Shown in pieces: positions 4,408 through 63,541 of a DNA stretch of 64,000 nt; position 1 is the stretch's first letter; every line of letters begins with the position of its first letter. Both the position numbers and the translations under genes were made by a program. The stretch lies in assembly GCA_964357525.1 (NCBI GenBank), contig CAYHLH010000002.1, positions 5,287-69,286 of the forward strand, given 5' to 3'. Source of the stretch: an uncultured Candidatus Saccharibacteria bacterium (GTDB lineage Bacteria > Patescibacteriota > Minisyncoccia > UBA6257 > GWB1-50-10). Under the pieces are notes generated by a model. That model was not told the origin of the DNA. It worked only from the letters and a program-made list of their open reading frames with translations, and ran no database searches.

Positions 4408-4588
4408 TTGATTTTTCTCCTTATGATTAATTGTTTGTAATTAATGTTTTTAAAATAAACTCTTTAAAATATAATTGATATTTAATCAAGTATATTTTAT
4501 AGCTAAATATTAGCACACTATTATAATAATGTCAATACCCTTGGAAAAGGGGTAAAAAAGCCTCATTTTAGGGGTTTTTTGCTACAAT

Positions 4589-5018: not shown

Positions 5019-5090
5019 GGCCCCATCGTCTAGTGGTTAGGACAACGCTCTTTCAAGGCGTAAACACGGGTCCGATTCCCGTTGGGGCTG
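5019..5090 (+). tRNA. tRNA-Glu (TTC)
   Basis: Cloverleaf: acceptor GGCCCCA/TGGGGCT, anticodon stem ACGCT/GGCGT with loop CTTTCAA, T-arm ACGGGTCCGATTCCCGT. Confidence 0.8.
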
Positions 5091-5910: not shown

Positions 5911-7173
5911 ATGACCATGATAGAACTCAAGTCGGTCGAAAATCCTCCCGAAAAGCCGAAAGCTCCCGAGGAGGAGATCGAAGCCGCTCCCGCCGCAAAG
6001 GACGTCCCGAAGCCGCTTCGCGACATTCCAGAGGTGAAGAGCCGTTGGGAGAGATTCCGCGACAAGACGAAGGAAAAACTCGCCGCCGTATACGAGAAAA
6101 CCGGCCTTGCGGACACGGTTGACCGCGCGAAGGTTGTGGTGAACCGCGCCATGATGAAATTTCACGTGAATGATGCCGTCGTGTACACGAAAAAGCTCGG
6201 AGAGCGCAACCAGAATATAGAATTCCTGCAGAAGAAATTCGACGATTACGACTCGAGCATAAAGAAGATGAAGGAACTCGGTGTCCACGGGGACAAGGAG
6301 GTGAGCGCGGACCTCGGGAAAGAGAGGATGAAGCTCGCCGAGAAGATAGATAAGGAGAAGAAGAAGGCCGACAGGATCCAGTCGAAACTGGAGGTGAAAA
6401 ACCTCAAGAAGGAAAGGTATGAAGGACGCGTCGGCGACATCTGCGAGAAGGCGAAGAACAGGATTGACAGGCATTTGAACCCGTTCGAACAGAAGCTCGG
6501 CGAGCTGAAGCTCGAGCGTGAAAGCCTGAAATCCGAGATCGTGAGCTTCAAGGACACGCGCGGGCGCTTTACGGAAGAGATAAAAACGCTGGAAGCGGCC
6601 GCAAAGGGCGCGGTGTGGAAAACGGAGAAGATGGCGTATGAAGCGAAGATAAAGGAGATAAAGAAGACCATAGGGAAGGCGGACGCCATGGTGGAAAAGA
6701 AGATGAAAGAAAGGACGAAGATAGAGAAGGGGATCGCCGCGAACGAGAAAAACGCGAATCCGTGGCGCGACAAGCGGAATGAGTTCGCGCGGTTCACAAA
6801 GATAGAATCGCCCGACACTTCCGTCCCGAAGAAGAAAACCGAGGAGTTCGGCGCCAGAAGTGGCGGAACCGAAAAATCGGGACCCGAGGGATCGGCGGCG
6901 GAGAAGTTCGGAGAAAAAGCGGAAAAATTCGAAACCCCGAAGCTCATCGCCTTGTGGAACAAGCACTTCGGTTCGGAGCTCTCACTTACACCGCAGATAT
7001 TGGAGAAGTTGGGCGGTTTTTCCGCGAAGCGGATGAGCGCGGATTACTTTTTGAACCTTGCTGGGCTTTATGACGCGAACATTCACGGAGCGAAGGGCCC
7101 GCAGAGGAGGGAATTCGACGATAAGGCATCGATGTTCCGGAAAATAGTCGACCGGCACGCGGGAGAAATGTAA
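5911..7173 (+). CDS. Lys/Glu-rich coiled-coil hypothetical protein
   Basis: 420 aa with strongly K/E-rich heptad-like sequence. The overlapping 565-aa minus-strand ORF has L/F-rich mirror-image composition typical of a shadow ORF. Confidence 0.5.
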   Translation: MTMIELKSVENPPEKPKAPEEEIEAAPAAKDVPKPLRDIPEVKSRWERFRDKTKEKLAAVYEKTGLADTVDRAKVVVNRAMMKFHVNDAVVYTKKLGERNQNIEFLQKKFDDYDSSIKKMKELGVHGDKEVSADLGKERMKLAEKIDKEKKKADRIQSKLEVKNLKKERYEGRVGDICEKAKNRIDRHLNPFEQKLGELKLERESLKSEIVSFKDTRGRFTEEIKTLEAAAKGAVWKTEKMAYEAKIKEIKKTIGKADAMVEKKMKERTKIEKGIAANEKNANPWRDKRNEFARFTKIESPDTSVPKKKTEEFGARSGGTEKSGPEGSAAEKFGEKAEKFETPKLIALWNKHFGSELSLTPQILEKLGGFSAKRMSADYFLNLAGLYDANIHGAKGPQRREFDDKASMFRKIVDRHAGEM

Positions 7174-7497: not shown

Positions 7498-7569
7498 TGC
7501 CCTCGAGGGGATTCGAACCTCTATTACAAGATCCGCAATCTTGCGTCCTATCCATTGAACGACGAGGGC
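7498..7569 (-). tRNA. tRNA-Arg (anticodon GCG as read; ACG/GCG ambiguity acknowledged)
   Basis: Reverse complement: acceptor GCCCTCG/CGAGGGC, D-loop AATGGATAG, anticodon stem CAAGA/TCTTG with loop TTGCGGA, T-loop TTCGAAT. Confidence 0.7.
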
Positions 7570-7613: not shown

Positions 7614-7690
7614 CCCAGTAGAATCACGGCTGCGCCGTAGCTCTACCGGGCCCACCCCTTTTCGGAGGTTTTTCCTCTCTTGCTATAATG
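7614..7690 (+). promoter_or_regulatory. Degenerate type-A hairpin (CCCAGTAGA...TCTACCGGG) followed by TTGCTATAAT at the sigma-factor gene start
   Basis: CCCAGTAGAATCACGGCTGCGCCGTAGCTCTACCGGG at 7614-7650, then CTTGCTATAATG at 7680-7690. Same architecture as the elements at 15508, 19404 and 22290. Confidence 0.4.
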
Positions 7691-10216: not shown

Positions 10217-10287
10217 TGCGGGTTAGGAGAATCGAACTCCTGTCTCAACCTTGGCAAGGTCGTGTTCTACCACTAAACCAAACCCGC
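10217..10287 (-). tRNA. tRNA-Gly (GCC)
   Basis: Reverse complement GCGGGTTTGGTTTAGTGGTAGAACACGACCTTGCCAAGGTTG...GAGTTCGATTCTCCTAACCCGCA. Anticodon loop TTGCCAA. Confidence 0.8.
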
Positions 10288-12812: not shown

Positions 12813-12897
12813 TTTCGCGACGTTTTATTCAGTATAGCATAAAAGATGCAAAAAACATGATTTCTCATACCCAAGGTCTTTTCTCCGCTTTTCTCCA

Positions 12898-12933
12898 CGC
12901 GGTCTGATTAATCAGACCGCGCCGTGGTATAAT
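12898..12933. promoter_or_regulatory. 24-bp perfect palindrome CGCGGTCTGATTAATCAGACCGCG followed by CCGTGGTATAAT (extended -10); operator-like site upstream of the frameshifted TrpR-like gene
   Basis: Perfect dyad centred on TTAA, the same centre as the E. coli trp operator CTAGTTAACTAG. Architecture identical to 1511-1546 but with a different half-site sequence. Confidence 0.5.
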
Positions 12934-13372: not shown

Positions 13373-13437
13373 ATTTTTCTCTCTAACTCCATCTTTCCCT
13401 CCGTCTTTTCTTTTTCTTCTATGTGTCCCCTCCACCA

Positions 13438-13461
13438 CGCGGTCTGATTAATCAGACCGCG
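13438..13461. promoter_or_regulatory. Second copy of the palindrome CGCGGTCTGATTAATCAGACCGCG
   Basis: Identical 24-bp dyad, 65 nt downstream of the pseudogene. Confidence 0.5.
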
Positions 13462-13630: not shown

Positions 13631-13660
13631 AGAGGTGGTCTGATTAATCAGACCACCTCT
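13631..13660. promoter_or_regulatory. 30-bp perfect palindrome AGAGGTGGTCTGATTAATCAGACCACCTCT (variant of the GGTCTGATTAATCAGACC dyad)
   Basis: Same core as at 12898 and 13438. Outer positions changed symmetrically (GCGG to GTGG on both arms). Confidence 0.5.
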
Positions 13661-13843: not shown

Positions 13844-15283
13844 CTATTTCATCAGTATCATTTTCTTCGTATCCGTAAAATCATCGGTTTTCAACCTGTA
13901 GAAGTAAACTCCGCTCGGCAAATTGACTCCGTCAAAAGAGACTTCGTAATTTCCGGCAGGCTTCATTCCGTTTACAAGAATTTCAACTTCTCTTCCGAGG
14001 ATGTCGTACACCGTAAGGTTTACAAGTCCTTTTTTAGGAACAGAAAACTGAATTTTTGTGACAGGATTGAACGGGTTCGGATAGTTCTGGGAAAGGGAGA
14101 ATTTTTCAGCAATCTCATTCTGATTCTGGATCCCCGTCATGGAGTCGGGCGCGTATTTCTTTATCCATCCGATCGACAGCGGATTTTGTCCGTTATCGAA
14201 GGATTTACCAAGAGCATAGAAATATCCTTGGTGAAATTTCACTCCCTGCACGTGGTTTAGGACATATTGCGGGTGTTGCACGATTCTCGTGCTCCACTTT
14301 CTGTGTCCATCAAGATCGAATGCGGCGAGGTACCCCGCCTTTTGCGACGTCCATTGCAGAGAATCCCTTCTGATCTGTGCTCCTATCAATATGAGATTCT
14401 GGTATTGCGATATGCTAACACCCTGAACAAAGTTCTCTTCATTCGCCGCGGAACTTCCGTTCGGAAGCCACATGGTGTCCCATATGATCGCGCCGTTTGT
14501 TCCGTTCAGTTTGCACAACCGGAACCATAATGCATAAAGCGGATTGAGCGAACCAGTCACGGTCATGCCGACATAGCAATTCCCGCTTGAATCAACATCC
14601 CCGTCCGTGGTAATTCCGATGGAATCCATGAAATCTTTTCTCCATGTTTGCTGGCGGGTCGCAAGATCGAATCGCATCACGGTGTTGCGGTAGGTGCCGT
14701 TGAAGGAAGTCGTGAAAATAGTCAGCTTGTCGCCTACCACTTTCGGATGCCTTCCGGCGGTGATGTTCGCCCCGATGGGAAAACTGCTCCGTTGGGTCCC
14801 GAACTCGTCATATATGAATATGATGTCATTCAATACATCAACCACGACGACACTGTCTCCGTAAACAGCAAGAAAAGGCGCTCCGACATATACCGAACTC
14901 GTATTGAGCAGAGCGCCCGATGAGGCGTCCCTGAACACAAGACGGTAATTATTGTTGGCCGCTTGGTGCGAGACATTCACTGTCTTGTTCTTTCCAGCAA
15001 GCACATTCAGTTGCGAATGACTGGCGATGGAGTTGTTATTGAACGTAGTGTCCAATTTCACCCACTGGGTAAGGCCGTTCACCGAATTACAGCGTATGAC
15101 ATGGGATTTGAAGTTGGTATAACCTCCGAGAAACAGCCCCCCGTTCCATACCTGCAGCTCGTTCGGATCCAGATGGTTTCCCTCGGAAGGAGGGTATTCC
15201 TGCGTCCAGACCAAAGATGGCGTCTGCGCGTTTGTTGCAAGAGCGCAACAAAAAAGCACAAGAGCGATGATTAGTGTTTTCAT
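13844..15283 (-). CDS. Secreted protein with a type IX secretion system C-terminal sorting domain (Por_Secre_tail)
   Basis: Signal peptide MKTLIIALVLFCCALATNAQ. C-terminus QNYPNPFNPVTKIQFSVPKKGLVNLTVYDILGREVEILVNG...LPSGVYFYRLKTDDFTDTKKMILMK matches the T9SS CTD consensus. Lower GC than the backbone. Confidence 0.7.
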   Translation of the reverse strand: MKTLIIALVLFCCALATNAQTPSLVWTQEYPPSEGNHLDPNELQVWNGGLFLGGYTNFKSHVIRCNSVNGLTQWVKLDTTFNNNSIASHSQLNVLAGKNKTVNVSHQAANNNYRLVFRDASSGALLNTSSVYVGAPFLAVYGDSVVVVDVLNDIIFIYDEFGTQRSSFPIGANITAGRHPKVVGDKLTIFTTSFNGTYRNTVMRFDLATRQQTWRKDFMDSIGITTDGDVDSSGNCYVGMTVTGSLNPLYALWFRLCKLNGTNGAIIWDTMWLPNGSSAANEENFVQGVSISQYQNLILIGAQIRRDSLQWTSQKAGYLAAFDLDGHRKWSTRIVQHPQYVLNHVQGVKFHQGYFYALGKSFDNGQNPLSIGWIKKYAPDSMTGIQNQNEIAEKFSLSQNYPNPFNPVTKIQFSVPKKGLVNLTVYDILGREVEILVNGMKPAGNYEVSFDGVNLPSGVYFYRLKTDDFTDTKKMILMK

Positions 15284-15507
15284 TTCAAACTCCTTTCGAG
15301 TTCCAAGCTTTTCAGCTTATTAATTTATTTAATTACTAGGTTCATTATAGCACATTACTACAAAATTTTCAAGTTATTCTGTCAATCCCTCACATAACAA
15401 GTTATATAAGGGATAAAGATAAGGTTTTAAGCGGTTTTTGGGTAGTTTTAATAATCAAAGAAACTAGGTCTTCCGGACGAGGTCGGGTTTTCTTGTTTCT
15501 CGATTTA

Positions 15508-15577
15508 CCCGGTAGTAGAACCGCGACAGGTTCTCCACCTTTGGGTAGTCGCGGTACACTACCGGGTTTGCTACAAT
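15508..15577 (+). promoter_or_regulatory. Type-A hairpin (CCCGGTAGTAGAACCGCGACAG...TAGTCGCGGTACACTACCGGG) followed by extended -10 TTTGCTACAAT
   Basis: Long inverted repeat with termini CCCGGTAGTAG / CTACTACCGGG, then the TGnTACAAT box. Its predicted transcript starts at about the ATG of the type-B element at 15585. Confidence 0.55.
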
Positions 15578-15584
15578 GAAACAT

Positions 15585-15718
15585 ATGCCCAGTAATACAA
15601 CTTCAATTCGCTTTGCGAAAAAGTGATTGAAGCACAGTTGCTGGGGAAAGTCGCAGTACAAACAAAAAGTTAAAAACACCTTGTCGCGGTGTAACCAATT
15701 GAAGTTGATATACTGGGT
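15585..15718 (+). mobile_element. Type-B inverted-repeat element, ORF-less derivative (MITE-like) of the GIY-YIG element at 63224-63544; its 3' end abuts the ATG of the 15719 gene
   Basis: ATG-CCCAGTAATACAACTTCAATTCG...CCAATTGAAGTTGATATACTGGGT-ATG. First 7 codons MPSNTTS identical to the GIY-YIG gene start, then a stop after 13 codons. About 23 bp terminal stem with a 3-nt central mismatch. Confidence 0.6.
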
Positions 15719-17179
15719 ATGAAAAATAAAAGGGAAATTGTATTTATTTTAGTCGGCGTGGCGTTCCTACTCTTCGTCCTTGTTTCCATGGGGGTGTTCC
15801 GGAATCTCGGGCAGCAGGTGGCCCAGGAGTTCTATGTGAACGCGAAGGGAGAGAAGTGGACGCTTCCGGACGGGAAGTACGAGTTCACGGTGAGCGCGAG
15901 CGGCTATCCGCGATTCCTAGGTGGAGTGATAGACCCCGTGAAAGTAAAAGTGGGAGATACGCAGACGATGACGGTCCGCGTCGCGAGCCCGGTGCCGATA
16001 GAGAGCGTCGTCGCTGAAATTCAAACGGACACAAAGACGCAGGAAATCGCGCTCACACTCGTGGAGAACAAGGCACTTTCGGGAGAGTATTTTGAAAACC
16101 AACCATACCTCATTGACGACAGCGGGGAGCTCATCATCAACAGGGCGAACTCAAGCTATGCGGAGAAGGCGATAAAGCAATTGGTCGCGAGCGCGGAGGC
16201 ACAATCCCTCGTAGAATATGTCTTTGAGGGCGAGTGGGTGGTAAACGACACGCATACGAAGCTTTACCACACGAAGTTCACGGCGACGGATGAGGACGGC
16301 AATGCCGACGAGCTCATTCTCGCGTGGTCCGACCCTGTGTGCAATTTTCTTACTGATGTTGATGGCACCGGATTACTTCAAGGAGACTGTTCAGTAACCA
16401 ACGGAGTTGAGGGTTTTGACGGGGCAAATCTTAGTTTGAATGGACATCAGGTAACTCTTTCCGGTACTTCCTCTCTCATCTGGAACGGGGATGCCGAAGG
16501 CAATCGGTCGCTCATCATAGGAGGGGGAAGCATCAGTATCGGCAACGGCACGCAGGTGAAGGAAGCGCTTCTGTGGTACACCGACCTTGATGCGGATACC
16601 TTTACGGCGGATTTGGGAACAATACACTACGAAGATTGTTCTCTGCCGCCGTGCCCGCAGAGGGTGCGCGTTAAAGATTCTCCATCGCGACCGTGGTTCA
16701 CTCCCGCCTTGGCAAACGGTCTTGACTGTCTCGACGACCCGACTATCGGGGATTTCAAGGCGGTTGACGTTCATCCCCAGCTTCCCGGGGAGGAGAAGTA
16801 TTTCGAGGATTTCTACAACGCGGGAGTGACAAACCCACAGAGTTACGACTACGACTGTTCCGGCGCGGCGACCGGAGGATGGGGAAATAATGTTCCCACC
16901 GATATAACCTCAACAACCCTCGTCTACTTCGACATAATAAGCGGCGGTGACGACCAGGGCGGCGGCAAGCAGTTATGCAATACAGGAGCGACCATAGAGG
17001 ATTTCTCTTCGTACTGCGGTACTCTCTCTCCTTCCACTTTCATACGGTGCGATGTTGGGCTCATTACCGGCGGTGGCGTGGGGAGCCCGGAGATTTTTCC
17101 TCCAGACCTTGAAAACGGATGGATGTACGGCACGTGCACCGAATGCATCGGCGTCTCGGTCGCCGGATTCTGCCACTGA
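15719..17179 (+). CDS. Secreted/membrane-anchored hypothetical protein with Cys-rich C-terminal region
   Basis: N-terminal signal anchor. C-terminus has multiple CxxC-like cysteines (CDVGLITGGGVGSPEIFPPDLENGWMYGTCTECIGVSVAGFCH). Confidence 0.55.
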   Translation: MKNKREIVFILVGVAFLLFVLVSMGVFRNLGQQVAQEFYVNAKGEKWTLPDGKYEFTVSASGYPRFLGGVIDPVKVKVGDTQTMTVRVASPVPIESVVAEIQTDTKTQEIALTLVENKALSGEYFENQPYLIDDSGELIINRANSSYAEKAIKQLVASAEAQSLVEYVFEGEWVVNDTHTKLYHTKFTATDEDGNADELILAWSDPVCNFLTDVDGTGLLQGDCSVTNGVEGFDGANLSLNGHQVTLSGTSSLIWNGDAEGNRSLIIGGGSISIGNGTQVKEALLWYTDLDADTFTADLGTIHYEDCSLPPCPQRVRVKDSPSRPWFTPALANGLDCLDDPTIGDFKAVDVHPQLPGEEKYFEDFYNAGVTNPQSYDYDCSGAATGGWGNNVPTDITSTTLVYFDIISGGDDQGGGKQLCNTGATIEDFSSYCGTLSPSTFIRCDVGLITGGGVGSPEIFPPDLENGWMYGTCTECIGVSVAGFCH

Positions 17180-17214
17180 TGAAGTATCCGAATTAGGTAG
17201 GAGTTACACAGCAT

Positions 17215-17250
17215 CAAAAAGCCCCCAAAAAGGGGGCTTTTGATTTTGAT
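17215..17250. terminator. Bidirectional terminator (CAAAAAGCCCCC-AAAAA-GGGGGCTTTTG)
   Basis: Perfect GC stem with A/T tracts on both sides. Confidence 0.6.
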
Positions 17251-17305
17251 TGAAATAAAGGCGGGGCCTCCAAACCCCGTCTTTTTCTTTACTTTTTAGA
17301 GTTGC

Positions 17306-17334
17306 TTGACGCCTATATTTGTGGTATAAACTAA
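17306..17334 (+). promoter_or_regulatory. Sigma-70-like promoter (TTGACG, 17-bp spacer, TATAAA) for the DUF397 gene
   Basis: TTGACGCCTATATTTGTGGTATAAACT read in sequence. The DUF397 gene has a strong SD (AGGAAGGAG) 7 nt before the ATG at 17428. Confidence 0.4.
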
Positions 17335-17427
17335 CAGTAGTTTTACATTAACAAACTTTGAGTGCCTGCTTGCGCATCTCATCCTTTCCGTAGGTTGGAA
17401 GGAATTTTAAAAGCAGGAAGGAGATTC

Positions 17428-17658
17428 ATGAAAATGAAAAAGCAATTTTCATTTCCGGTGGAGGACTCGGATTTCCAAACTTCGAGTTACACTCACCCCG
17501 GTGGGATAATTACCCGCTGTGTAAAAGTCGCCATAAAGAAAAAAGGCGTAGCTTTGCGGGACAGCAAGGATCCCGGTAATAAGACCTTATTCTTCAAGCT
17601 CGGCGAATGGAATGCCTTTATTAAAGGCGTTAAAGACGGCGAATTTGACCTTAAATAA
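17428..17658 (+). CDS. DUF397 domain protein
   Basis: FQTSSYTHPGGIITRCVKVAI...ALRDSKDPGNKTLFFKLGEWNAFIKGVKDGEFD matches the DUF397 signature (SSYS..CVEV...RDSKDP...F...W.AF..GVK.GEFD). Start set at the ATG with a good SD, not the track start at 17362. Confidence 0.6.
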   Translation: MKMKKQFSFPVEDSDFQTSSYTHPGGIITRCVKVAIKKKGVALRDSKDPGNKTLFFKLGEWNAFIKGVKDGEFDLK

Positions 17659-17748
17659 AATTGTGCCGTAGCGCTACGACATATATATGGGCATACTTGA
17701 TAGGTATGCCCTTTTGTCATTTAATTAATTCGATGGGAAGACCATAAT

Positions 17749-18324
17749 ATGGAAAAACCTCGGTTCTACATTTTACCCGGGTGGGGGCATAGGATTACCG
17801 ATAGAAACTATCGGAAGCTTATTTCCATTGTCTCCAAAAAGTACCTATTTACGCCGCTCGCGCTTTCCACGAGGAACAGGAAATATTCGCTGGGAGGCCC
17901 GGAGCCCGTCTCAACAATACTCAAAAAAATCGAGGAACAGATTGCCAAACCATGTGGGCGTGACGTAATCCTCGGATTCTCCGTGGGAGCCCTGCAGGCA
18001 TATCTCCTTGCGCGGCGGCTCGATTTCAAACATGCGATTTTGTGCTCTTTGAGTCCGGTGCTCGGCAAGGACATCCTGCTTTACCGCAAGAAAGAACTTT
18101 CGGATTTCTCCCTGGTTCAACGGCGGGAAATGAAGAAAATGAATTACCCCCCGCTTGCTACAAAAAAGGTGACGCTCCTGTATGGCGGAAAAGAGCACAT
18201 TACCGTGAAGAATAGGGCGAAGCGGTTGAGCAAGAGAAAAGGGTGGCGCGCAATCGAGATCAGAAATGCTGACCATGACCTTGGTGATGCATATCTGAAA
18301 GGCATAAAAAAGGTTTTACTATAA
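17749..18324 (+). CDS. Alpha/beta hydrolase fold protein (YqiA-like esterase)
   Basis: GxSxG nucleophile elbow (GFSVGA) and C-terminal His (ADHDLG). AT-rich. Confidence 0.5.
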   Translation: MEKPRFYILPGWGHRITDRNYRKLISIVSKKYLFTPLALSTRNRKYSLGGPEPVSTILKKIEEQIAKPCGRDVILGFSVGALQAYLLARRLDFKHAILCSLSPVLGKDILLYRKKELSDFSLVQRREMKKMNYPPLATKKVTLLYGGKEHITVKNRAKRLSKRKGWRAIEIRNADHDLGDAYLKGIKKVLL

Positions 18325-18372
18325 ATAAAAACTCCCGTATTTCTACGGGAGTTCAGGAGAAAAATGAAGTTA

Positions 18373-19275
18373 CTATCGTATCAGTATCATCTTCTTCGTA
18401 TCGGTGTAGTCCCCAGCCGTCAAGCGGTACAGGTATGTCCCGCTTGAGAACTTGTTTGCATTCCAGTCGATCTTGTAGCTTCCGGCTTCCATTTCCTCGT
18501 TCACCAGAACCTCGATTTCCTTTCCCAAGGCGTCATACACCGTGAGTGTCACGAGTTCCGGTTTTTGTATCCAGAATTCTATGTTCGTCAAGGGGTTGAA
18601 CGGATTGGGGTAATTCTGCTTGAGTTTGAATTCTTTCACCGTTTCGTTTTGTGGTTCCATACCCACTAGCGTCCTCTCAAAGTCGTCAATGATGGCCTCC
18701 CAAGTTGCCCCGCCGTTGGAGGAAGTAATGTACCAGTCAAGTATGACCGATGCATTTATGTTCTGTCCTCCTGGAGGATAAATAGTGACGAACTTTATCT
18801 TTAGTTTGTTGAACTGTTGGGGGAAGTTTTGTGGTACCACCCAAAGTCCAAGACCCCATGAGTTGAGAGAAGCCCTGCTAATGAAATAACCGCCAACTTG
18901 AGACCATGGATCGCTGTTTTTTTTCACATAAAAATACAGTTCCAATCCAACTACTGATGAAATTGGAGTAAGTTCAGTGGGTTTAATGCGTATGACGAAA
19001 AATTCTGCTTGAGTGGAACGATTTATCATCGTAGCAAGCGTTTTCTCGATTTCTATATATCCTTCATGAATTCCCACAATATTGAACTTCTGAGCCGAAT
19101 CGCCTTGCCCCCAGTGGTCACCGGTCATTTGTGAATTGTAAACCGTGATACCGCTATGCGTGCCGTTCGGCGCCCAGCCGTTTATGGGATTCATGTTGAT
19201 TTCATAAAGCAGGAATAGAAACCCCAAGATAAGTATCAACAAGGCTCCAAAAAAGATAATCTTTGTAGGTTTCAT
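18373..19275 (-). CDS. Secreted protein with a T9SS C-terminal sorting domain (second copy)
   Basis: C-terminus KQNYPNPFNPLTNIEFWIQKPELVTLTVYDALGKEIEVLVNEEMEAGSYKIDWNANKFSSGTYLYRLTAGDYTDTKKMILIR. N-terminal TM/signal. AT-rich. Confidence 0.7.
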   Translation of the reverse strand: MKPTKIIFFGALLILILGFLFLLYEINMNPINGWAPNGTHSGITVYNSQMTGDHWGQGDSAQKFNIVGIHEGYIEIEKTLATMINRSTQAEFFVIRIKPTELTPISSVVGLELYFYVKKNSDPWSQVGGYFISRASLNSWGLGLWVVPQNFPQQFNKLKIKFVTIYPPGGQNINASVILDWYITSSNGGATWEAIIDDFERTLVGMEPQNETVKEFKLKQNYPNPFNPLTNIEFWIQKPELVTLTVYDALGKEIEVLVNEEMEAGSYKIDWNANKFSSGTYLYRLTAGDYTDTKKMILIR

Positions 19276-19403
19276 TTCTGAAACCCTCCTTTCCAGTGAT
19301 ATTTAGTTTTTATTTATTCTGTCCTATTTATACCACGAAATACGGAGAAAAACAACCATTCTGTTCGAGTCCTTTTTCTACCCCTTTTTCAGCATTGAAT
19401 TTG

Positions 19404-19471
19404 CCCAGTAGTAGAACCGCGACAGCCCTTGCCGGAAAATGGTCGCAGTTCACTACTGGGTTTGCTATACT
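19404..19471 (+). promoter_or_regulatory. Type-A hairpin (CCCAGTAGTAGAACCGCGACAG...TCGCAGTTCACTACTGGG) followed by extended -10 TTTGCTATACT; a second TTTGCTATAAT box at 19498-19508 lies 8 nt before the ATG
   Basis: Inverted repeat with termini CCCAGTAGT / ACTACTGGG, read directly. Promoter boxes TGCTATACT and TGCTATAAT. Confidence 0.55.
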
Positions 19472-19516
19472 TATTACATAAGGTCAGAGATCGAAAGATT
19501 TGCTATAATAAAAGCA

Positions 19517-21430
19517 ATGAAAAATAAACTTCTCGTTTTTTCAGTCGGCGTACTTTCGCTTGCGGTGCTTTTCTCCGCAGGAGCGGTATTTGGGCAGGGA
19601 AGAAACAATACGTGGACCCCGCCCGCCCAGCAATTCCCGGCGGGGAATACAACGCCGCCGGTGGACGTGGGAGCAGAAAAACAAACGAAGGTGGGTGAGT
19701 TTACTGCAAGGGTTCTCGAATCAAGCAATAGTCTTGGTGGACCGGGTTTCATTCTTCAACCCAACACTTCCATACAATCCGGACAGAACACCTTCTTTCT
19801 TTCCACGGGAGGTTATTCCGTTCTGAATTCTTTGGGCCACATTTTCCTGAACTCCAACAGCGGGTCAATCCAAATCAACGCCCCGGCGGGGACTGCGAAC
19901 TTTTCCATCACGAAAGGACTCGTGCTCCCGAACTACACGACGACCCAACTTGGTACCGGGGTTCCGGCAGGAACTGTTACCTATAACCCTACGACCGGCG
20001 AATTATGGCTTTTCACCGGCGGAACGAATTGTAATGAACAGCAGGGGGGAATTTTGAATTCGGCTTCCGCACAGAGCGGGAGGTGCTGGGTGAAAGTCGC
20101 CACGGGCAGCCTGAATGTCAATACGTACTGGCAGCCGGTGGGTACTGGAAAGATCCATTACGACAACAATGTGGGAATCAACACGGGAACTGCTGAGCCG
20201 CGCGGGCCGTTGGACATCGTGAGCGGCGCGGACAACAAACCTGCGTACTTCTCAAGCGCCAAGGGGTTGGTGCTCCCGAATTATACGACGGCACAGTTGG
20301 GGAGCGGTGTGCCCGCTGGGACTATCACCTGGGATAACACGACAGGGAAATTGTATGTTTTAAAAACACAAACAGGAGGATCGAAAGCGCCAGGGTTGGT
20401 AGGCGAAGCGAACGCGCAGGTCGGTGGAACGTGGGTTGAGATTGGCGCGGGCGGGCAGCCCACGAACGTGTTCTGGCAAGCGGGAACGGGAGGTGCCATT
20501 CATTATCCGGGAGGCAATGTCGGTATCGGGACGAACGCTCCTGCTATCAATCTCGCCATCGGCGATACCGACACCGGTCTCAAGTGGATAAGTGATGGCA
20601 ATCTCGCGGTTTATACGAACAATGCGGAGAGGATGAGGGTTGATTCAAGCGGTAGCGTCGGCATCGGCACGAGCATGCCGACGGCGAAGCTTGACGTGGT
20701 TGGCAGCGCGAAATTGACGGGGGATGTCACGCTTGCTCCTTCGGGACAGTCGGCATATACCGTGAAAAACAGCGCGGGGACCATTGGGCTCTACAACGGC
20801 TCGAACGCGGTGAACTTCAGCGTGGGGCAGGACGGCGTCGTGCTCGTGAAGGACAGAATTGCCGCGCAGGGGACGACGCTCCAAATAGTGGGGTCATCGG
20901 GAAGCGAGAGTGTGCTCAAAGTGGGAGGTACGTATGGAGGCACGTTCCGGCCCGGCAGGGTGGAAATCGCGCATCCGAACGGTACGGACACGATATCTCT
21001 GAAGCAGGAATACGGGAAAACACTTTCTATCAGCGAGCCGGGGAATAATAAGACGCTCAAAATAAATCTTGATAACGTTTTGGCCACAAGCTGTTTCAAC
21101 GTGAACGGCGTTGATCCGCACAGATTTTTGAAAGTGGACGCGAACGGGTGGCTCGTCTGCGCCGATCTTCCCAATTCAAGTCCCACGGTGCAGATTTTCC
21201 CTGCGCCAGGTAGCAATCCGCTTGCGGGCGACAATATGATAGATCTTGGGAACAACTGGTCACTTTGTTCGCTCTCGTGGATGGAGTCTACCGGAGGTCC
21301 GGGCGGGGATCCGTTTCGTCCAACCGGCTGCGAAGTCGGAAAGAACACTGGCAATAATCAGTGGTATCTGCGGGCGATCAAGAACGGCGAATGGAACGCC
21401 CGATGTAAGGCCACGTGCGTGAGATTTTAA
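19517..21430 (+). CDS. Large secreted repeat protein (tail-fibre/adhesin-like), two copies of the motif GLVLPNYTTxQLGxGVPAGTxT...TTG(E/K)L
   Basis: Signal peptide MKNKLLVFSVGVLSLAVLFSAGAVFG. Internal near-identical repeats at about residues 130-165 and 250-285. Gly/Thr/Asn-rich. Start chosen at the ATG after the TATAAT box (track start 19439 lies inside the hairpin). Confidence 0.55.
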   Translation: MKNKLLVFSVGVLSLAVLFSAGAVFGQGRNNTWTPPAQQFPAGNTTPPVDVGAEKQTKVGEFTARVLESSNSLGGPGFILQPNTSIQSGQNTFFLSTGGYSVLNSLGHIFLNSNSGSIQINAPAGTANFSITKGLVLPNYTTTQLGTGVPAGTVTYNPTTGELWLFTGGTNCNEQQGGILNSASAQSGRCWVKVATGSLNVNTYWQPVGTGKIHYDNNVGINTGTAEPRGPLDIVSGADNKPAYFSSAKGLVLPNYTTAQLGSGVPAGTITWDNTTGKLYVLKTQTGGSKAPGLVGEANAQVGGTWVEIGAGGQPTNVFWQAGTGGAIHYPGGNVGIGTNAPAINLAIGDTDTGLKWISDGNLAVYTNNAERMRVDSSGSVGIGTSMPTAKLDVVGSAKLTGDVTLAPSGQSAYTVKNSAGTIGLYNGSNAVNFSVGQDGVVLVKDRIAAQGTTLQIVGSSGSESVLKVGGTYGGTFRPGRVEIAHPNGTDTISLKQEYGKTLSISEPGNNKTLKINLDNVLATSCFNVNGVDPHRFLKVDANGWLVCADLPNSSPTVQIFPAPGSNPLAGDNMIDLGNNWSLCSLSWMESTGGPGGDPFRPTGCEVGKNTGNNQWYLRAIKNGEWNARCKATCVRF

Positions 21431-21574
21431 ATTAGCTTCATTTCAGCCGAAGGCTGGTCCGCCTTTGGCGGAAGCTTCATAGTAAGAAAGTCCGCCCCCG
21501 CCATGGCGGGGTCGGACTTTCTTTAATATGGTTTGACCAAGATTGAGGAACGGTAGAATATAAGAATATAACCT

Positions 21575-21925
21575 ATGGAAATAAAAATAGTGAAAGATCA
21601 TATAACCGCGGAAGAGTTAAAAAAAATGGCGAGCGAGGGGTTTGGCGATCTCGTGAAAGCGGTCGTTGATGTGAGTCAGAAAATCATGGCGGTGGGCGGA
21701 GAGCTTCACGCCGATGAAGAGATAATGCTCGTGGAAAAAGAACATTCGCGTCGTGAACATACATGGGGAATTAATATTTACCCCGCGAGGCCGGAGAAGG
21801 AACGGCTTGAATTTGATTCCATGATTAACTTGAAGCCGATGTCCGGCAACCGGTCGCGGGATGTGGAAAGCCCGGATACGAGAGAGAAGATACGAGAAAT
21901 CGTAGCAAAACTTGTACGCGGGTAA
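21575..21925 (+). CDS. Small conserved hypothetical protein (possibly DUF5674-like)
   Basis: 116 aa, MEIKIVKDHITAEELKKMASEGFGDLVKAVVDVSQKIMAVGGELHADEE... Family assignment from memory only. Confidence 0.45.
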   Translation: MEIKIVKDHITAEELKKMASEGFGDLVKAVVDVSQKIMAVGGELHADEEIMLVEKEHSRREHTWGINIYPARPEKERLEFDSMINLKPMSGNRSRDVESPDTREKIREIVAKLVRG

Positions 21926-21926
21926 T

Positions 21927-22256
21927 ATGGCGCTAATCCATAAAAATCTGGCAGAGGGGAGGTGGTACGAGCTGTCTTTCGCGGAGCAGTTGGGGAACAT
22001 TGGAAGCGAGGTATTGCGCGCCTCGCGTCGGCAATTGAAAGACAACACACTTTTCTGGGGCGCGGTTTTTCGCGCGCTGGAACTTTTTGATTTGACCCTT
22101 GGCGATCCGCGCTGGGCAGGGCGCCGTTACGAAATCGCCCGCGCCAGAGAGGTATTTTGCGATGCCGTATACGGAGGAAAACTGTACAAAAGTTCATTGT
22201 CCGATTTAATTCCTTATTTTGACAGTTTCGCGCTTGCGGCAAGAAATAAATTATAG
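21927..22256 (+). CDS. Small hypothetical protein, adjacent to (1-nt gap) the previous gene
   Basis: ATG 1 nt after the stop of the 21575 gene. Helical, no recognised motif. Confidence 0.4.
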   Translation: MALIHKNLAEGRWYELSFAEQLGNIGSEVLRASRRQLKDNTLFWGAVFRALELFDLTLGDPRWAGRRYEIARAREVFCDAVYGGKLYKSSLSDLIPYFDSFALAARNKL

Positions 22257-22289
22257 GTCAGATAGATAATAGTCTGTAAAGGAAATTTG

Positions 22290-22430
22290 CCCAGTAGTAG
22301 CACTGCGACACATTTTGCGCCTCCAGTGGATTTTTCAGAAAACATCGGAATGGCGTTATAAAATAATATATTCAACTGTATCAATGACATGTTAGAGGCA
22401 GTCGCAGTCCACTACTGGGTTTGCTATACT
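22290..22430 (+). promoter_or_regulatory. Type-A hairpin (CCCAGTAGTAGCACTGCGACA...CAGTCGCAGTCCACTACTGGG, loop of about 90 nt) followed by TTTGCTATACT; ATG of the downstream gene lies 7 nt after the -10 hexamer
   Basis: Inverted-repeat termini identical to the 19404 copy. A leaderless arrangement is predicted. Confidence 0.55.
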
Positions 22431-22437
22431 TAATATA

Positions 22438-24969
22438 ATGACAATAAAAAGAGTTTCTTTTCTTTCCTTTGCGCTTGTCGCGGCTATGGGGATTTTTGTT
22501 TCTTTTGCGACAGCAGCAGAGCCATTAAGGGCCCGCGTTTCCTCAATTACCGCCAATTCGGTGGTCGTTTATCTTGATGGGTGGACGCAGGCGCGGAGCG
22601 GCGAGATCTACACGCTCTACCGGAACAACGGAACGGGCGACACGCGCCTCAATGTCGGTACGGCTATGTTTTATCGCGATACCAATGTCCCGACTGGGAA
22701 GACTTACACCTACCGGCTCACGAAAAATCCTGGGGGAGATATAGGCACCGCGCAGGTGAACGCCAACATACGCCCAGGAACAATAGTGAAAGGCGTTGGA
22801 TGGAGTTCGATGGACGGCGCAGGCATAGGGTGGATAAGCGTCAATAGCACCTCGCAGGATCGGCAGGGAGGCAATCCCCATTCTTCGGTTCCCTATGGCG
22901 TCTATGCGGATGATTCCGGAGTTATGCACGGCGTCATGTGGGCGGGGCATGTGTCTGGAAGTCCCGCGACGGGGTGGGGGTGGCTCTCATTCAACCAGGA
23001 AGATCTGAAAAACTGCCCCGACAGCAATTGCAGGGCGTTCCTGAACCCTGCGACGGGGAAGATTGACGGATGGGCAAAATTCATAAACACAACAGGAGCA
23101 GCGGAGTCTTGGAGCGGATGGGTAAGTTTGCGGAACATGGATCCAAAAAATCCGTACGGACTCTGTTTCGGCGATCCGGACGGACAGCCAATCAAAGTTG
23201 ACGATGCGTTGTATTACAGCGGAAACGCGTGCAAGGCAAACGGAGGGGTGACCCACCCCGTGCTCACAGGTGCCGCATGGGCGGGTTTGAACTCCGATGA
23301 GCCAGGGGGATGGGTTCTATTTGCCTCGTCTTCTCTGGGCATCATCAATCCGACCTCGACCTTGTCGGGCGTTGCCATCAGCCCTCCGCCGCCGCACAAC
23401 GTCGCCATCCGCGACATCAAGGAGTTCTCGGCGAACAGGGCTGTTTCGTGGTTTGTGGACAACACCTACGGTGGGAATTCCCGCTACGGGACGGTGACAC
23501 CGCGCGATTCCGGAGAATACGTGCCGGTGAGCTACCTGGCGCCGATGACCCTGCCGAACCCGAGAAACACCTTCATCAGGGTGTCGACGACGGACAGCGG
23601 CACTCCAGCCGCCGACCAGGATCCCTTGACTGTCGTGCCGCCGTACTCCTTGACGTGCCTTTCCGAGGGCGAAACCTCCATTCGCCTCATAATCACGAAG
23701 AATTATTTCGACCCGAACTATTTCGGGCGCGAGCCGCACCGGATAGACCTCCGCGGCGCGACGGGAACTCCGCCCTCCGTCATCATCGCGTCGTCCACGA
23801 CGGGCGCCATCCCCTCATTCACGCACACGGGGCTGAAGAAAAAGACGAAGTATAACTATGAGCTCGCTACGACCTATAACCGCGACGGGTATGTGGTGAG
23901 GACCTCGCCCATCGTGTCCTGCGAGACGGGCGCGTCGCCAGAGCCCGTGGGGGCCGCCGTGAACCTCAACGCGTACGCGAACACACCGCAGAGCATCTGG
24001 GTGAACTGGAAGGATACTTCCCGCGCGACGACGCCGTACGAGTTCGAAATCCAGCGCATGAGGGTCACTCCCGATCGCGAGAACCTGCGGCTTGAGTTCC
24101 GCCCGACGAGCATGACGAAGGCGGAGATCACGTGGGAGAACAGGACGCTCTGGGTCCCGTACATACAGAAGTTGTGGAGGAGCGACGGCCCGAGCGGGAA
24201 GTTCGACCTTGTGTTGGGCAACGTCCCCGGGTGGCTCCGCGAAGGGCCTCCGACTTCGACCGTACGATACGCGTTCAGCGACGTGGTCGAGCCGGGGCAC
24301 CAGTATCGGTACAAGCTCGAGGTGTGTGCCTCCCTGAACCTCGAGGACGTATACTCAAGTCCCGTTCGCGGCGGGACGGCGAAGCCGCCGCTCGTGTGCG
24401 TTGAGTCCGACACGTTCAACTACCTCCATTCGTGGAGTGGCGGCGAGGGCGCCCGCGCTCCCGGAACGTTTGCCAAAGCGACGGCGTCCCTCCTTGATGT
24501 CTCACACCGCGCGCTCCGGAGCGTCTGGAATGCGGTAGCAGGGCTTTCCGAAAAGGTTTCCTCGGGATTGAGGTTCGCCGCCTCGTCCGTCTCGAAATGG
24601 TTCGGCGGCGGAGAACGGACGGTGCTCGCACAGACCGCAAATTACAATGCGTACTTCAAGACAGCGGTCATCACAAAGAACCCGTCCTACTTCGACAGTG
24701 ACCTCGTCCCCGACACGGTGTATCTTTACCGCGTGTCAATCCTTTCGGACGAACCCGTGTGGAGCAATCTCCGCGCGGCGAAAACACTCCTCGACGACCA
24801 AGGGGGTCCCACGGAGAACCGTCCGGTCTGCACCCGGAACAGCTTCTGCGACGCGAGCGTGCCGGGAGTGAAGACGGGCGACCTTTCCGAATCATCGGAA
24901 CAGCAGTGCTTCGTGAACAAGGACTGCGTGGATGTGGGGAGAAGCGACCAGGGATTCCAGGAAAGATAG
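22438..24969 (+). CDS. Large secreted protein with fibronectin type III-like repeats and a Cys-rich C-terminus
   Basis: Signal peptide. FN3-like segments (ANSVVVYLDGWTQARSGEIYTLYR...GKTYTYRLTKN; YNYELATTY...). C-terminal CTRNSFCDASVPG...CFVNKDCVD. Confidence 0.6.
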   Translation: MTIKRVSFLSFALVAAMGIFVSFATAAEPLRARVSSITANSVVVYLDGWTQARSGEIYTLYRNNGTGDTRLNVGTAMFYRDTNVPTGKTYTYRLTKNPGGDIGTAQVNANIRPGTIVKGVGWSSMDGAGIGWISVNSTSQDRQGGNPHSSVPYGVYADDSGVMHGVMWAGHVSGSPATGWGWLSFNQEDLKNCPDSNCRAFLNPATGKIDGWAKFINTTGAAESWSGWVSLRNMDPKNPYGLCFGDPDGQPIKVDDALYYSGNACKANGGVTHPVLTGAAWAGLNSDEPGGWVLFASSSLGIINPTSTLSGVAISPPPPHNVAIRDIKEFSANRAVSWFVDNTYGGNSRYGTVTPRDSGEYVPVSYLAPMTLPNPRNTFIRVSTTDSGTPAADQDPLTVVPPYSLTCLSEGETSIRLIITKNYFDPNYFGREPHRIDLRGATGTPPSVIIASSTTGAIPSFTHTGLKKKTKYNYELATTYNRDGYVVRTSPIVSCETGASPEPVGAAVNLNAYANTPQSIWVNWKDTSRATTPYEFEIQRMRVTPDRENLRLEFRPTSMTKAEITWENRTLWVPYIQKLWRSDGPSGKFDLVLGNVPGWLREGPPTSTVRYAFSDVVEPGHQYRYKLEVCASLNLEDVYSSPVRGGTAKPPLVCVESDTFNYLHSWSGGEGARAPGTFAKATASLLDVSHRALRSVWNAVAGLSEKVSSGLRFAASSVSKWFGGGERTVLAQTANYNAYFKTAVITKNPSYFDSDLVPDTVYLYRVSILSDEPVWSNLRAAKTLLDDQGGPTENRPVCTRNSFCDASVPGVKTGDLSESSEQQCFVNKDCVDVGRSDQGFQER

Positions 24970-28439: not shown

Positions 28440-28574
28440 ATGCCCGGTAATACAACTTCGATGCGCTCCGTGAAAAATGAATCGAAGTGTAATGCCTTTG
28501 GAAATTAATGACACGAGTAAATATCAAAATTACATTAGTCGCGGTGATAACCAATCGAAGTTGATATACCGGGC
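28440..28574 (+). mobile_element. Type-B inverted-repeat element (ORF-less derivative of the GIY-YIG element), filling the whole intergenic space between the 28140 gene stop and the pilB ATG
   Basis: CATG-CCCGGTAATACAACTTCGATGCG...CGCGGTGATAACCAATCGAAGTTGATATACCGGGC-ATG. Keeps codons MPGNTTS then a stop after 23 codons. Arms carry compensatory changes relative to the 15585 copy (A/T to G/C at two stem positions). Confidence 0.6.
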
Positions 28575-40822: not shown

Positions 40823-41515
40823 ATGCCGGTTTTTAAATCCGTTAATAAAGACTTCTTTAAGAAATGGTGTCCGGAAATGGCCTACGTGCTCGGATTTTTC
40901 GCGGCTGACGGTTATATTACTGTGAACAAGCGCGGTGGACAGTTTTTAGGAATTCAGATTACCGATAAGGATCTTCTTGAAAATATTAAAAAAGCGCTGA
41001 GTTCGGAGCATAAGATAGGGAAACGTGCTCGTGGAGGAAATGAACAACCAACATATCGTCTTCAAGTTGGGAGCATTGAGATGTGCGACGATTTACGCCG
41101 TCTCGGTTTTTGCGAGAAAAAAGTAAGACGTTTAACGATGCCAAATATTCCCAGAAAATATCTTTCTGATTTTGTTCGCGGTTATTTTGATGGCGATGGA
41201 AATGTATGGGTGGGATTTGTGAATAAAAAGAGAAAAAATCCGGTGTTAACCATTGTAACGATGTTCACTTCTTGTTCGACTGAATTTTTACGCATTTTGT
41301 GGGGAAAGCTTCGAGTGGAGGGGGTTTCCGGCGGTTCTATCTATAATGCAAAGGGTAATTATTCTCGTTTACAATTTGGAGCGAGAGATTCTTTGAAATT
41401 ACAAGAATTTATGTATAATCAGAATTGTCTTAAAAATGGACTGTTTCTCGAGAGAAAGAAAAAAATTTTCAAGAGATACAATGCGTTAAAAAAGAGACAT
41501 GCGGTCGTGGTGTAG
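40823..41515 (+). CDS. Free-standing LAGLIDADG homing endonuclease (two-motif, single-chain type)
   Basis: Two LAGLIDADG motifs: LGFFAADGYI and RGYFDGDGNV. AT-rich. Three TATAAT boxes upstream. The 3' end overlaps tRNA-Asp by 15 nt. Confidence 0.75.
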   Translation: MPVFKSVNKDFFKKWCPEMAYVLGFFAADGYITVNKRGGQFLGIQITDKDLLENIKKALSSEHKIGKRARGGNEQPTYRLQVGSIEMCDDLRRLGFCEKKVRRLTMPNIPRKYLSDFVRGYFDGDGNVWVGFVNKKRKNPVLTIVTMFTSCSTEFLRILWGKLRVEGVSGGSIYNAKGNYSRLQFGARDSLKLQEFMYNQNCLKNGLFLERKKKIFKRYNALKKRHAVVV

Positions 41516-41575
41516 CCTGGTTAACATACCTCCCTGTCACGGAGGGGATCGTGGGTTCAAATCCCATCGGCCGCG
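41501..41575 (+). tRNA. tRNA-Asp (GTC)
   Basis: Acceptor GCGGTCG/CGGCCGC, anticodon stem CCTCC/GGAGG with loop CTGTCAC, T-arm GTGGGTTCAAATCCCAT. Confidence 0.8.
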
Positions 41576-42226: not shown

Positions 42227-42299
42227 TGCCGACGGGAGGAATCGGACCTCCGACCTAAGCGTTATGAGTGCTTCGCTCTAACCACTGAGCTACGCCGGC
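42227..42299 (-). tRNA. tRNA-Met (CAT) (elongator Met or Ile2/lysidine type not distinguishable)
   Basis: Reverse complement GCCGGCGTAGCTCAGTGGTTAGAGCGAAGCACTCATAACGCTT...GGAGGTCCGATTCCTCCCGTCGGCA. Anticodon loop CTCATAA. Confidence 0.75.
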
Positions 42300-44192: not shown

Positions 44193-44264
44193 TGCGGGGA
44201 GGAGTAACGGTTGCTCGTCAGGCTCATAACCTGAAGGTAGTGGGTCCAATTCCCACCCCCGCAA
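44193..44264 (+). tRNA. tRNA with CAT anticodon (Met or Ile2); 5' boundary uncertain by 1 nt
   Basis: Anticodon stem TCAGG/CCTGA with loop CTCATAA, T-arm GTGGGTCCAATTCCCAC, acceptor TGCGGGG/CCCCGCA. Confidence 0.65.
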
Positions 44265-45472: not shown

Positions 45473-45544
45473 GCCCCCATAGCTCAATGGATAGAGCAGC
45501 GCTCTTCTAAGGCGTTGATCTGGGTTCGACTCCTAGTGGGGGCG
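45473..45544 (+). tRNA. tRNA-Arg (TCT)
   Basis: GCCCCCATAGCTCAATGGATAGAGCAGCGCTCTTCTAAGGCGTTG...CTGGGTTCGACTCCTAGTGGGGGCG. Anticodon loop CTTCTAA. Confidence 0.8.
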
Positions 45545-45692: not shown

Positions 45693-45764
45693 GCCGCGGT
45701 AGCTCAGTGGTGGAGCGCTGCCCTGAAGAGGCAGGCGTCGGGTGTTCGATTCACCCCCGCGGCA
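45693..45764 (+). tRNA. tRNA-Phe (GAA)
   Basis: GCCGCGGTAGCTCAGTGGTGGAGCGCTGCCCTGAAGAGGCAG...GGGTGTTCGATTCACCCCCGCGGCA. Anticodon loop CTGAAGA. Confidence 0.8.
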
Positions 45765-47057: not shown

Positions 47058-47129
47058 GGTGCCTGTAGTTCAATGGTAGAACGCCGCCCTGTGGAGGCGG
47101 TCACGGGAGTTCAATTCTCCTCAGGCACC
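47058..47129 (+). tRNA. tRNA-His (GTG) with encoded G-1
   Basis: G-GTGCCTG...anticodon loop CTGTGGA...T-arm GGGAGTTCAATTCTCC...CAGGCAC-C. Extra 5' G pairs with C73. Confidence 0.8.
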
Positions 47130-50905: not shown

Positions 50906-51144
50906 CGACGGCGTTTTTGCGGGGCGAGTGGTCGCTCCTCCGCATGCGCCGTTTTTCGTCCCCTTGAAGGGGATTTTTGTCGCGTAGAGAAAATGAAGGA
51001 TATGAATCCCGATGATGAATAGATTGCTCGGTGAATTTCGGGATTACATATCAAAATAAATACCATGCAAAATAAAAAGAATACAAGCAATATACAGTCG
51101 CAATCGTCCGAAAACGCACGAGTGCGTTTTCGTTCATCATCGGG

Positions 51145-57445: not shown

Positions 57446-57474
57446 GAAGCGGATACAATTTGTATTTCCCCGCT

Positions 57475-57688
57475 CGCTCGGAAATGTAGGTATAACCACC
57501 CCCATTTCCTCGCTCGCCAGGTTATGGCGGAATGAAATTCCTTGGTAACCTAGTTCGCTCGGAAATGTAGGTATAACCACCCCCATTTCCTCGCTCGCCA
57601 GGTTATGGCGGAATGAAATTCCTTGGTAACCTAGTTCGCTCGGAAATGTAGGTATAACCACCCCCATTTCCTCGCTCGCCAGGTTATA
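57475..57688. repeat. 81-bp tandem repeat, 2.6 copies, copies 1 and 2 identical
   Basis: Unit CGCTCGGAAATGTAGGTATAACCACCCCCATTTCCTCGCTCGCCAGGTTATGGCGGAATGAAATTCCTTGGTAACCTAGTT at 57475, 57556 and 57637 (partial). The partial third copy ends in AGGTTATAATG, creating a TATAAT box 9 nt before the GTG start of the 57697 gene. Confidence 0.85.
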
Positions 57689-57696
57689 ATGAGTTT

Positions 57697-63223: not shown

Positions 63224-63541
63224 CCCAGTATATCAACTTCCAGTGACGCCAGACGCCCCTTTGGAACGCTGGTATTCCTGAAGTCGCAATCCGAGGAACC
63301 TCCGACCCTGGGTTCCCTTGAGATAGTGTTCCCTGCGTCTGGCGTCTTTTAAGTTTGTGCACCCCTCAAAGTACACGAGCTTGAATGGTCTGCGGGGAGC
63401 AGTTGCAAGGCTTTTGCCTTTTTCGTGCGCTTCCAATCTCTGCCTGAGGTTGGGAGCATACCCGATGTATCGTTTGTTGTCCTTCATGCTCTCCAAGACG
63501 TAGACATAGTGGAAGTGCACTCTGGAAGTTGTATTACTGGG
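63224..63541 (-). mobile_element. Type-B inverted-repeat element, full-length copy carrying a GIY-YIG gene (candidate parent of the copies at 15585 and 28440)
   Basis: Minus-strand reading: ATG-CCCAGTAATACAACTTCCAG...CTGGAAGTTGATATACTGGG-ATG. The 5' arm is the first codons of the GIY-YIG ORF. The 3' arm contains its TGA stop and ends exactly at the ATG of the 62294 gene. Confidence 0.55.

Follow-up and report, generated by a model that had tools for sequence, protein, structure and literature searches.

The hairpin that adjoins extended -10 promoters in the 64,000-nt stretch analysed here (the window) is very probably a palindromic mobile element, MITE-like and non-autonomous, with a length of 57-137 bp, and represents type A of a superfamily in the Patescibacteria (CPR). 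Type A has been mobile over the period in which related species diverged. Its insertion sites are T[A/T]TG(C), of which 4 bp become duplicated, and in this genome the 4-mer struck is the -16 TTTG of TTTGnTATAAT extended -10 promoters. The duplication restores TTTG beside the -10 box and keeps the promoter intact, with the hairpin taking the place of the dispensable -35 region, and in other genomes the usual landing site is the NATG of a leaderless start codon. We infer that the three copies in the window are near-neutral parasites, not regulators.

The three copies lie on the + strand at 15508-15566 (59 nt, with the G-C variant at arm position 4), 19404-19460 (57 nt, the copy named in the original prediction) and 22290-22419 (130 nt, the long form). 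All carry the arms CCCRGTAGTAGNACYGCGAC / GTCGCRGTNCACTACYGGG around loops of 18, 17 and 89 nt, respectively, and each lies directly 5' of TTTGCTAYAMT. The 17-mer CTACYGGGTTTGCTAYA, which joins the 3' arm to the promoter, occurs 3 times as compared to 0.01 expected. Folding against shuffled sequences gave z values of -5.5 (15508), -4.8 (19404) and -4.6 (22290). A covariance model built from the arms scored the 15508 and 19404 copies at ~45 bits (45.3 for the former) against a best background below 10 bits; it missed the 22290 copy, presumably owing to the long loop. Across 15 distinct copies from several genomes the arms are ~20 nt in every copy and 87% of cells are paired. The R at arm position 4 pairs with the Y of the partner arm as GC in 8 copies and AU in 7, with none unpaired, the covariation of type A consisting of this one variable pair alone. 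Both variants are present inside four separate genomes.

A fourth copy had been placed at 7614, ahead of the ECF sigma gene. The 37-nt sequence found there (7614-7650, no strand assigned), with outer termini CCCAGTAG...CTACCGGG, scores 19-21 bits with the covariance model (E ~1e-4 to 6e-4) and has a folding z of -2.9. It has in common with type A only the outer 8-9 nt of each arm; its inner stem differs and position 4 is an A/C mismatch. The conserved arms with varying loop that had been described therefore hold for the three real and mutually alike copies and not for this one, which also departs from the predicted position-4 covariation. Its 3' arm ends 29 nt ahead of cTTGCTATAAT (start 7679) without joining the promoter, so that the 3' arm does not always abut the -10 box, as had been claimed, and does so at three copies. 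The sequence is probably a diverged or decayed relative rather than a true fourth copy. It is not found upstream of the ECF sigma orthologues at three related loci (L054-L056), where the region is rearranged. The neighbouring tRNA gene (7498-7569) is inverted relative to its orientation beside the ECF sigma gene in these three relatives. It is one of ten single tRNA genes dispersed over the 64 kb, the others lying at 2052-2123, 5019-5090, 10217-10287, 41501-41575, 42227-42299, 44193-44264, 45473-45544, 45693-45764 and 47059-47129.

Homology searches with the 843-aa protein encoded downstream of the 22290 copy led to syntenic loci in relatives, L050 (GCA_041643275.1, 68% identical) and the more distant L051-L053. 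At the orthologues of all three occupied promoters (cagtattgaaTTTGCTATACTTATACC-ATG, AAATTTGGTATACTTAAGGCA-ATG and cttgaTTTGCTATAAT), L050 has one TTTG and no hairpin. Ahead of the 637-aa orthologue L050 reads cagtattgaaTTTGCTATACTTATACC-ATG, as compared to cagcattgaaTTTG, the hairpin and TTTGCTATACTTATTAC in the window; with the hairpin and one TTTG deleted from the window sequence, 30/34 positions across the 19404 junction are identical with L050. A MAFFT global alignment had paired the L050 promoter with the second promoter of this gene (P2, below) and so hidden the empty site, which local alignment after removal of the element revealed. The empty site for the 22290 copy reads AAATTTGGTATACTTAAGGCAATG in L050 and gaTTTGCTATAATAAATTCAATG in L051, and that for the 15508 copy is given by the junction-spanning L050 match gcttgaTTTGCTATAAT. 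The comparison of orthologous promoters thus finds the hairpin absent at L050 for all three copies and at L051 for one. Since the empty L050 sites have the same promoters, the promoters came first and the hairpin entered their TTTG.

The flanks of the elements carry short direct repeats. The 19404 and 22290 copies are each bounded by an exact 4-bp duplication of TTTG (19400-19403 and 19461-19464; 22286-22289 and 22420-22423), and the 15508 copy by TTTA (15504-15507) and TTTG (15567-15570), an imperfect duplication. We tested 24 insertions, comprising 16 distinct type-A elements and eight type-B-like elements (below). An exact 4-bp direct repeat is present at 17 of these and a 5-bp repeat at 2 more, a level reached in 0/20000 permutations; in the subset without TATG, exact repeats occur at 7/14 insertions and again none of 20000 permutations reaches this. 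The repeats at type-A sites are TATG (4), TTTG (2), CATG, CATA, TCTA, CGTA, CTTTG and TTATA, with 3/4 bases matching at four sites. Flanking direct repeats that differ by site are the signature of target-site duplication, and in both types the duplication has a fixed length and a variable sequence, as in MITEs. The rebuilt target consensus is A-rich, followed by T-[A/T]-T-G and often C. Because T[A/T]TG(C) is both the -16 promoter motif and the NATG of start codons, the choice of target accounts for the apparent fusion of hairpin and promoter. Where the original prediction offered a promoter-delivering miniature element as one of two readings, the miniature element itself is borne out: type A is a mobile insertion with inverted termini, target-site duplications and empty orthologous sites.

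We searched for the exact 5' arm in one representative genome per species and in JGI metagenomes; the constancy of the 5' arm in foreign copies follows from this query, while the 3' arm and flanks were free to vary. A few of the matches are chance occurrences within coding sequence. Type-A arms were found in Jorgensenbacteria, Liptonbacteria, Wolfebacteria and other MAGs and uncultured bacteria, at unrelated genes, and homologues of the window proteins carry the label Patescibacteria. Database records exactly matching the 637-aa and 843-aa proteins as delimited here were not found. The interiors of type-A elements are not conserved and their lengths cluster at 57-71 and 123-137 nt. One foreign genome has two type-A copies per contig (L026), and the window has three in 64 kb. 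Foreign copies are followed by unrelated sequence. In six of them (L002, L006, L013, L020, L022 and L028) a leaderless gene has the element directly behind its ATG and its promoter ahead of the element, and in L030 it sits inside the TATG of TATGCTATAAT in reversed orientation relative to the promoter. The adjoining promoters are thus peculiar to the genome of the window, and elsewhere the same element mostly follows start codons.

Hainich groundwater metagenomes contain identical short contigs (L025, L027, L035 and L036), and neither type-A nor type-B arms were found in viral contigs. The closest relatives of the hairpin, which carry a small nuclease gene, spread via ultra-small groundwater bacteria in what seems an undescribed way; a full-text literature search of incomplete coverage found no published description of such elements. 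Long type-A copies (among L001-L034) and type-B miniatures from unrelated genomes have a near-constant length of 123-137 nt with interiors that cannot be aligned. Several of these elements have an A/T-rich, -10-like stretch (TCAATAAT, TTTAAAT) just 5' of the 3' arm, which might act outward as a promoter for genes of the host that have had their start codon invaded.

Two type-B miniatures lie on the + strand of the window, at 15588-15717 (130 nt, directly after the leaderless ATG of the 486-aa gene, with a TATG duplication) and at 28443-28573 (131 nt, at the start codon of a PilB-like ATPase gene, with a CATG duplication); the empty PilB site in L052 reads ccatagcctcATGACAGACC. The full-length type-B element at 63224-63541 (- strand, 318 nt) contains the ORF of a 103-aa GIY-YIG nuclease (CDS 63233-63544), whose ATG is a captured host start codon just outside the element and whose reading frame ends 9 nt short of the duplicated ATG of the host gene. 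Types A and B have the outer 7 bp and ~13/17 terminal bases in common, along with the same target and the same duplication. Type-B miniatures contain the type-A motif GTCGCRGT, and their interiors are unrelated to the GIY-YIG gene. The predicted sharing of the termini CCCRGTA/TACYGGG and of GTCGCRGT is thereby confirmed, and the common termini, target and duplication support the proposed common origin of type A and the GIY-YIG element. The inner stems of type B covary completely (CCAG/CTGG, CAAT/ATTG, CGAT/ATCG and CCCCGTA/TACGGGG).

A search with the GIY-YIG protein returned 184 homologues, with PF01541 in all matches listed. The left arm, read as codons, gives the N-terminus MPSNTTS, which occurs in ~100 of the 120 homologues listed, and variants of the nuclease each have their own, internally complementary arms. 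Among solved structures the UPF0213 protein BH0048 (PDB 1zg2, E 1e-6) is nearest, and the match to TIGR01453 is weak and below the cut-off. In other genomes the GIY-YIG genes always lie ~10 nt upstream of a host gene in the same orientation, with up to three copies in 6 kb. The host genes of type B include DnaB, ClpB, MraZ, PilB and an EamA-like gene, each with an NATG duplication.

The window also holds a type-C miniature (51005-51144, + strand) with arms CCCGATGATGAA / TTCATCATCGGG, located between an ATG (51002) and the ATG of the ORF starting at 51145; type C adds a third variant of the arms to the superfamily. In L050, type-C-like arms at 6853-7074 enclose a degenerate GIY-YIG ORF; this insertion follows the leaderless promoter of the 843-aa orthologue and precedes the gene start, indicating that the same gene start has been struck by different family members in different lineages. 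We also observed three GIY-YIG elements with three different arm sequences, together with a 163-nt miniature, within 8 kb of a Nealsonbacteria-like contig (L040: 10004-10315, 12632-12948, ~15660-15960 and 17798-17960), each directly upstream of a host gene (a hypothetical gene, ClpB, MraZ and the PBP operon). A scan of the window for any CCC...GGG palindrome gave 43 as compared to 36-66 in shuffled sequence, and only the specific arm families are meaningful. A 130-nt repeat at 50271 and 57188 was considered as an element and proved to be a pair of paralogous small membrane-protein genes.

Judging from sequence, we consider it moderately likely that type A is moved in trans and that type-B-like elements supply the GIY-YIG nuclease for this, because the two types share termini, target and duplication and type-B miniatures carry GTCGCRGT. 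The small nuclease would come from full-length type-B elements, of which 63224-63541 is one intact copy. The element ends may be recognised as a base-paired hairpin or cruciform, as position 4 is always complementary, both of its variants occur within four genomes and the inner stems of type B covary. Insertion at a leaderless start codon would let the nuclease borrow the host promoter and ATG. It counts against this link that types A and B agree at only ~13/17 terminal bases. GIY-YIG enzymes, to our knowledge, cut DNA by hydrolysis and are not known to transfer strands, and a target duplication is not known to be left by homing endonucleases. With a hydrolytic enzyme the 4-bp duplication would need host repair or ligation.

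Complementary arms might also reflect a role in RNA, the stem either placing the duplicated host AUG near the 5' end or being processed, which would let translation of the host gene continue. The stem does span the interval from the first ATG to the second NATG in the six foreign type-A copies at leaderless genes and in all type-B copies, the A-U/G-C covariation is RNA-like, and the nuclease ORF of type B stops 9 nt short of the host ATG. In the window, however, all three copies are located 5' of the -10 box and are therefore not transcribed from these promoters. Rfam 15 gave only tRNAs over the whole window at the gathering score and nothing credible over 15300-22600 at E up to 1. We regard an RNA role as possible but on balance unlikely, and it would complement the mobile-element explanation, not replace it.

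Somewhat less likely again is that the hairpin is mobile but is moved by another, unseen enzyme, such as a DDE or other transposase encoded elsewhere, with the GIY-YIG gene as a passenger or secondary invader. No ORF-bearing type-A element was found: none of the type-A copies recovered is a coding element with the exact arms, and no remnant of a nuclease gene was found inside type-A interiors. The 8-14 kb around foreign type-A copies contained no GIY-YIG gene, these stretches being too short to be informative. The type-B miniatures, too, have interiors unlike the nuclease gene, and a 4-bp duplication is in general typical of transposases and not of homing nucleases. Against this, in the 41 window proteins tested, a subset of the ORFs, nothing but the GIY-YIG protein resembles a nuclease or recombinase, and Pfam searches found no transposase or recombinase domain in the other 40. 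The left arm of type B is moreover the N-terminal coding sequence of the nuclease, and the co-varying arms of the nuclease variants fit a protein that recognises its own ends. Mobilisation by the GIY-YIG nuclease extends to a broader proposal, which we put forward tentatively and at somewhat less than even chances: types A, B and C may together be a superfamily, so far undescribed, of transposable elements with hairpin ends in CPR/Patescibacteria, moved by a nuclease of ~100 aa, with a 4-bp duplication at leaderless start codons or at the look-alike -16 motif and with abundant miniature derivatives.

TTTGCTAYAMT is a TGn-extended -10 sequence, as had been predicted. It lies exactly 7 nt ahead of an ATG in the pre-existing promoters at 15567-15577 (TTTGCTACAAT, + strand, before ATG 15585, where the 486-aa gene originally had its leaderless start) and 22420-22430 (TTTGCTATACT, + strand, before ATG 22438 of the leaderless 843-aa gene). 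The 637-aa gene has two promoters in tandem on the + strand. P1 (19461-19471, TTTGCTATACT) is the insertion target and has no ATG at leaderless distance in this genome, and P2 (19499-19509, TTTGCTATAAT) has no hairpin and lies 7 nt before ATG 19517. P1 has lost its ATG, which is part of CATG in L050 and reads CATA in the window. P2 and the sequence around it resemble a tandem copy of P1 that has since diverged, and L050 has a single promoter ahead of the 637-aa orthologue. The duplication was possibly a repair of expression after the hairpin insertion.

The sequence T[AT]TGCTAYAMT occurs six times in the window, with the three hairpin-free sites at 4578, 19499 and 12841 (minus strand), and 4/6 have the leaderless layout with an ATG 6-7 nt downstream. 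The usual promoter of this genome seems to be a TGn-extended -10 sequence with a TTTG or TATG -16 motif. There are ~49 intergenic T[AT]TGC sites, six of them consensus promoters, and 3/3 type-A copies are in promoters (~0.002 by chance). That all three are at promoters despite the ~49 sites suggests that recognition reaches further than the target 4-mer or that selection filters the insertions. An extended -10 promoter can function without a -35 box, and the insertion of a hairpin should for this reason be well tolerated.

The original prediction also raised an operator for a regulator of secreted-protein genes. Three of the ~six consensus promoters do carry the hairpin, each ahead of a gene for a signal-peptide protein. 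This reading, whether of a native operator or of an element co-opted as one, is nonetheless very improbable, as the hairpin is missing from the orthologous promoters of relatives, the spacing of the arms varies from 17 to ~97 nt, the context is different in other genomes and the flanks are target duplications. A transcription-factor operator was likewise rejected, there being no fixed half-site spacing (loops of 17-89 nt in the window) and no fixed position relative to the promoter. Least probable of all is a MITE that delivers its own promoter: although 19442-19476 and 22401-22435 are 94% identical for 16 nt past the arm and no ATG lies at leaderless distance from the promoter beside the 19404 copy, L050 has the same promoters with a single TTTG, flanked alike on either side and lacking the element, foreign copies run into unrelated sequence, and the 7-nt spacing to ATG at two copies fits native promoters.

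Several further features of the window were observed. A TrpR-like gene is intact at 1545-1934, and a short ORF at 12997-13218 matches it with 76% identity over 84 nt. Around this short TrpR-like ORF a 24-nt perfect palindrome, CGCGGTCTGATTAATCAGACCGCG, occurs three times (12895-12921, 13435-13461 and 13631-13657). The palindromes look like a set of operators for a small repressor that has been duplicated and has possibly decayed. At 57474-57716, just upstream of a VanY-like gene (57697-58596), an 81-nt unit is repeated 2.7 times with the first two copies identical, and the last copy continues into GGTTATAAT, so that the region may be a tandemly duplicated promoter. A Por_Secre_tail domain (type IX secretion C-terminal sorting) is present in two proteins (13844-15283 and 18373-19275, both on the minus strand); such proteins are unexpected for a Patescibacteria genome and are likewise present in L050.

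The recognition of type A as a mobile element removes a false lead, in that the secreted-protein genes here form no hidden regulon. With 7-8 copies of such elements in 64 kb, small CPR genomes bear a dense load of tiny mobile elements aimed at leaderless genes, in the region of their core promoter and start codon. For annotation, these insertions give rise to spurious short ORFs, displace predicted gene starts and can pass for regulatory motifs. If the link to the GIY-YIG nuclease is true, it would represent a new mode of DNA transposition and a parasite that borrows the host start codon, and if the superfamily reading is true, a GIY-YIG nuclease would be the engine of a true prokaryotic transposon.

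Type A shows several of the features by which MITEs are defined, namely terminal inverted repeats, small non-coding dispersed copies, a 4-bp duplication and empty orthologous sites. As a short non-coding hairpin with inverted termini and dispersed copies it resembles the Correia elements of Neisseria, ERIC, RUP and the Rickettsia palindromic elements, and it shares with bacterial MITEs and palindromic repeats in general the target-site duplication, the presence or absence between relatives and the frequent location beside promoters and gene starts. Correia elements duplicate TA. The duplication of type A is instead 4 bp at T[A/T]TG, and the promoter is its target, not its cargo; a promoter-carrying, Correia-like MITE was rejected because the same promoter is present at the empty sites and lies outside the duplication. 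Type A also differs from bacterial MITEs in that its coding relatives carry a GIY-YIG nuclease rather than a DDE transposase and that it inserts by preference at the -16 promoter motif and at leaderless start codons.

REP/BIME repeats with their RAYT genes offer a further parallel, as hairpin repeats thought to be recognised as structure and as a coding gene flanked by the hairpins of the non-coding copies. The IS200/IS605 type makes no target duplication and uses an HUH/Y1 enzyme, whereas type A has a duplication, and with no HUH/Y1 transposase domain among the 41 window proteins tested, identity with REP/RAYT or IS200/IS605-type elements was rejected. Integron attC sites (GTTRRRY core, cassette array, IntI) were rejected as well: the ends are CCCRGTA/TACYGGG, the elements stand as single copies in promoters and no integrase was seen among the tested window proteins. 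Type B encodes a GIY-YIG domain of ~100 aa, like the free-standing GIY-YIG homing endonuclease genes (I-TevI, Seg) and the UPF0213/YhbQ-like proteins, and like homing genes it behaves as a selfish insertion beside host genes. Unlike homing endonuclease genes, which have one cognate site and are copied by repair without duplication, type B strikes many unrelated genes and has paired termini, a 4-bp duplication, no start codon of its own and non-coding miniatures.
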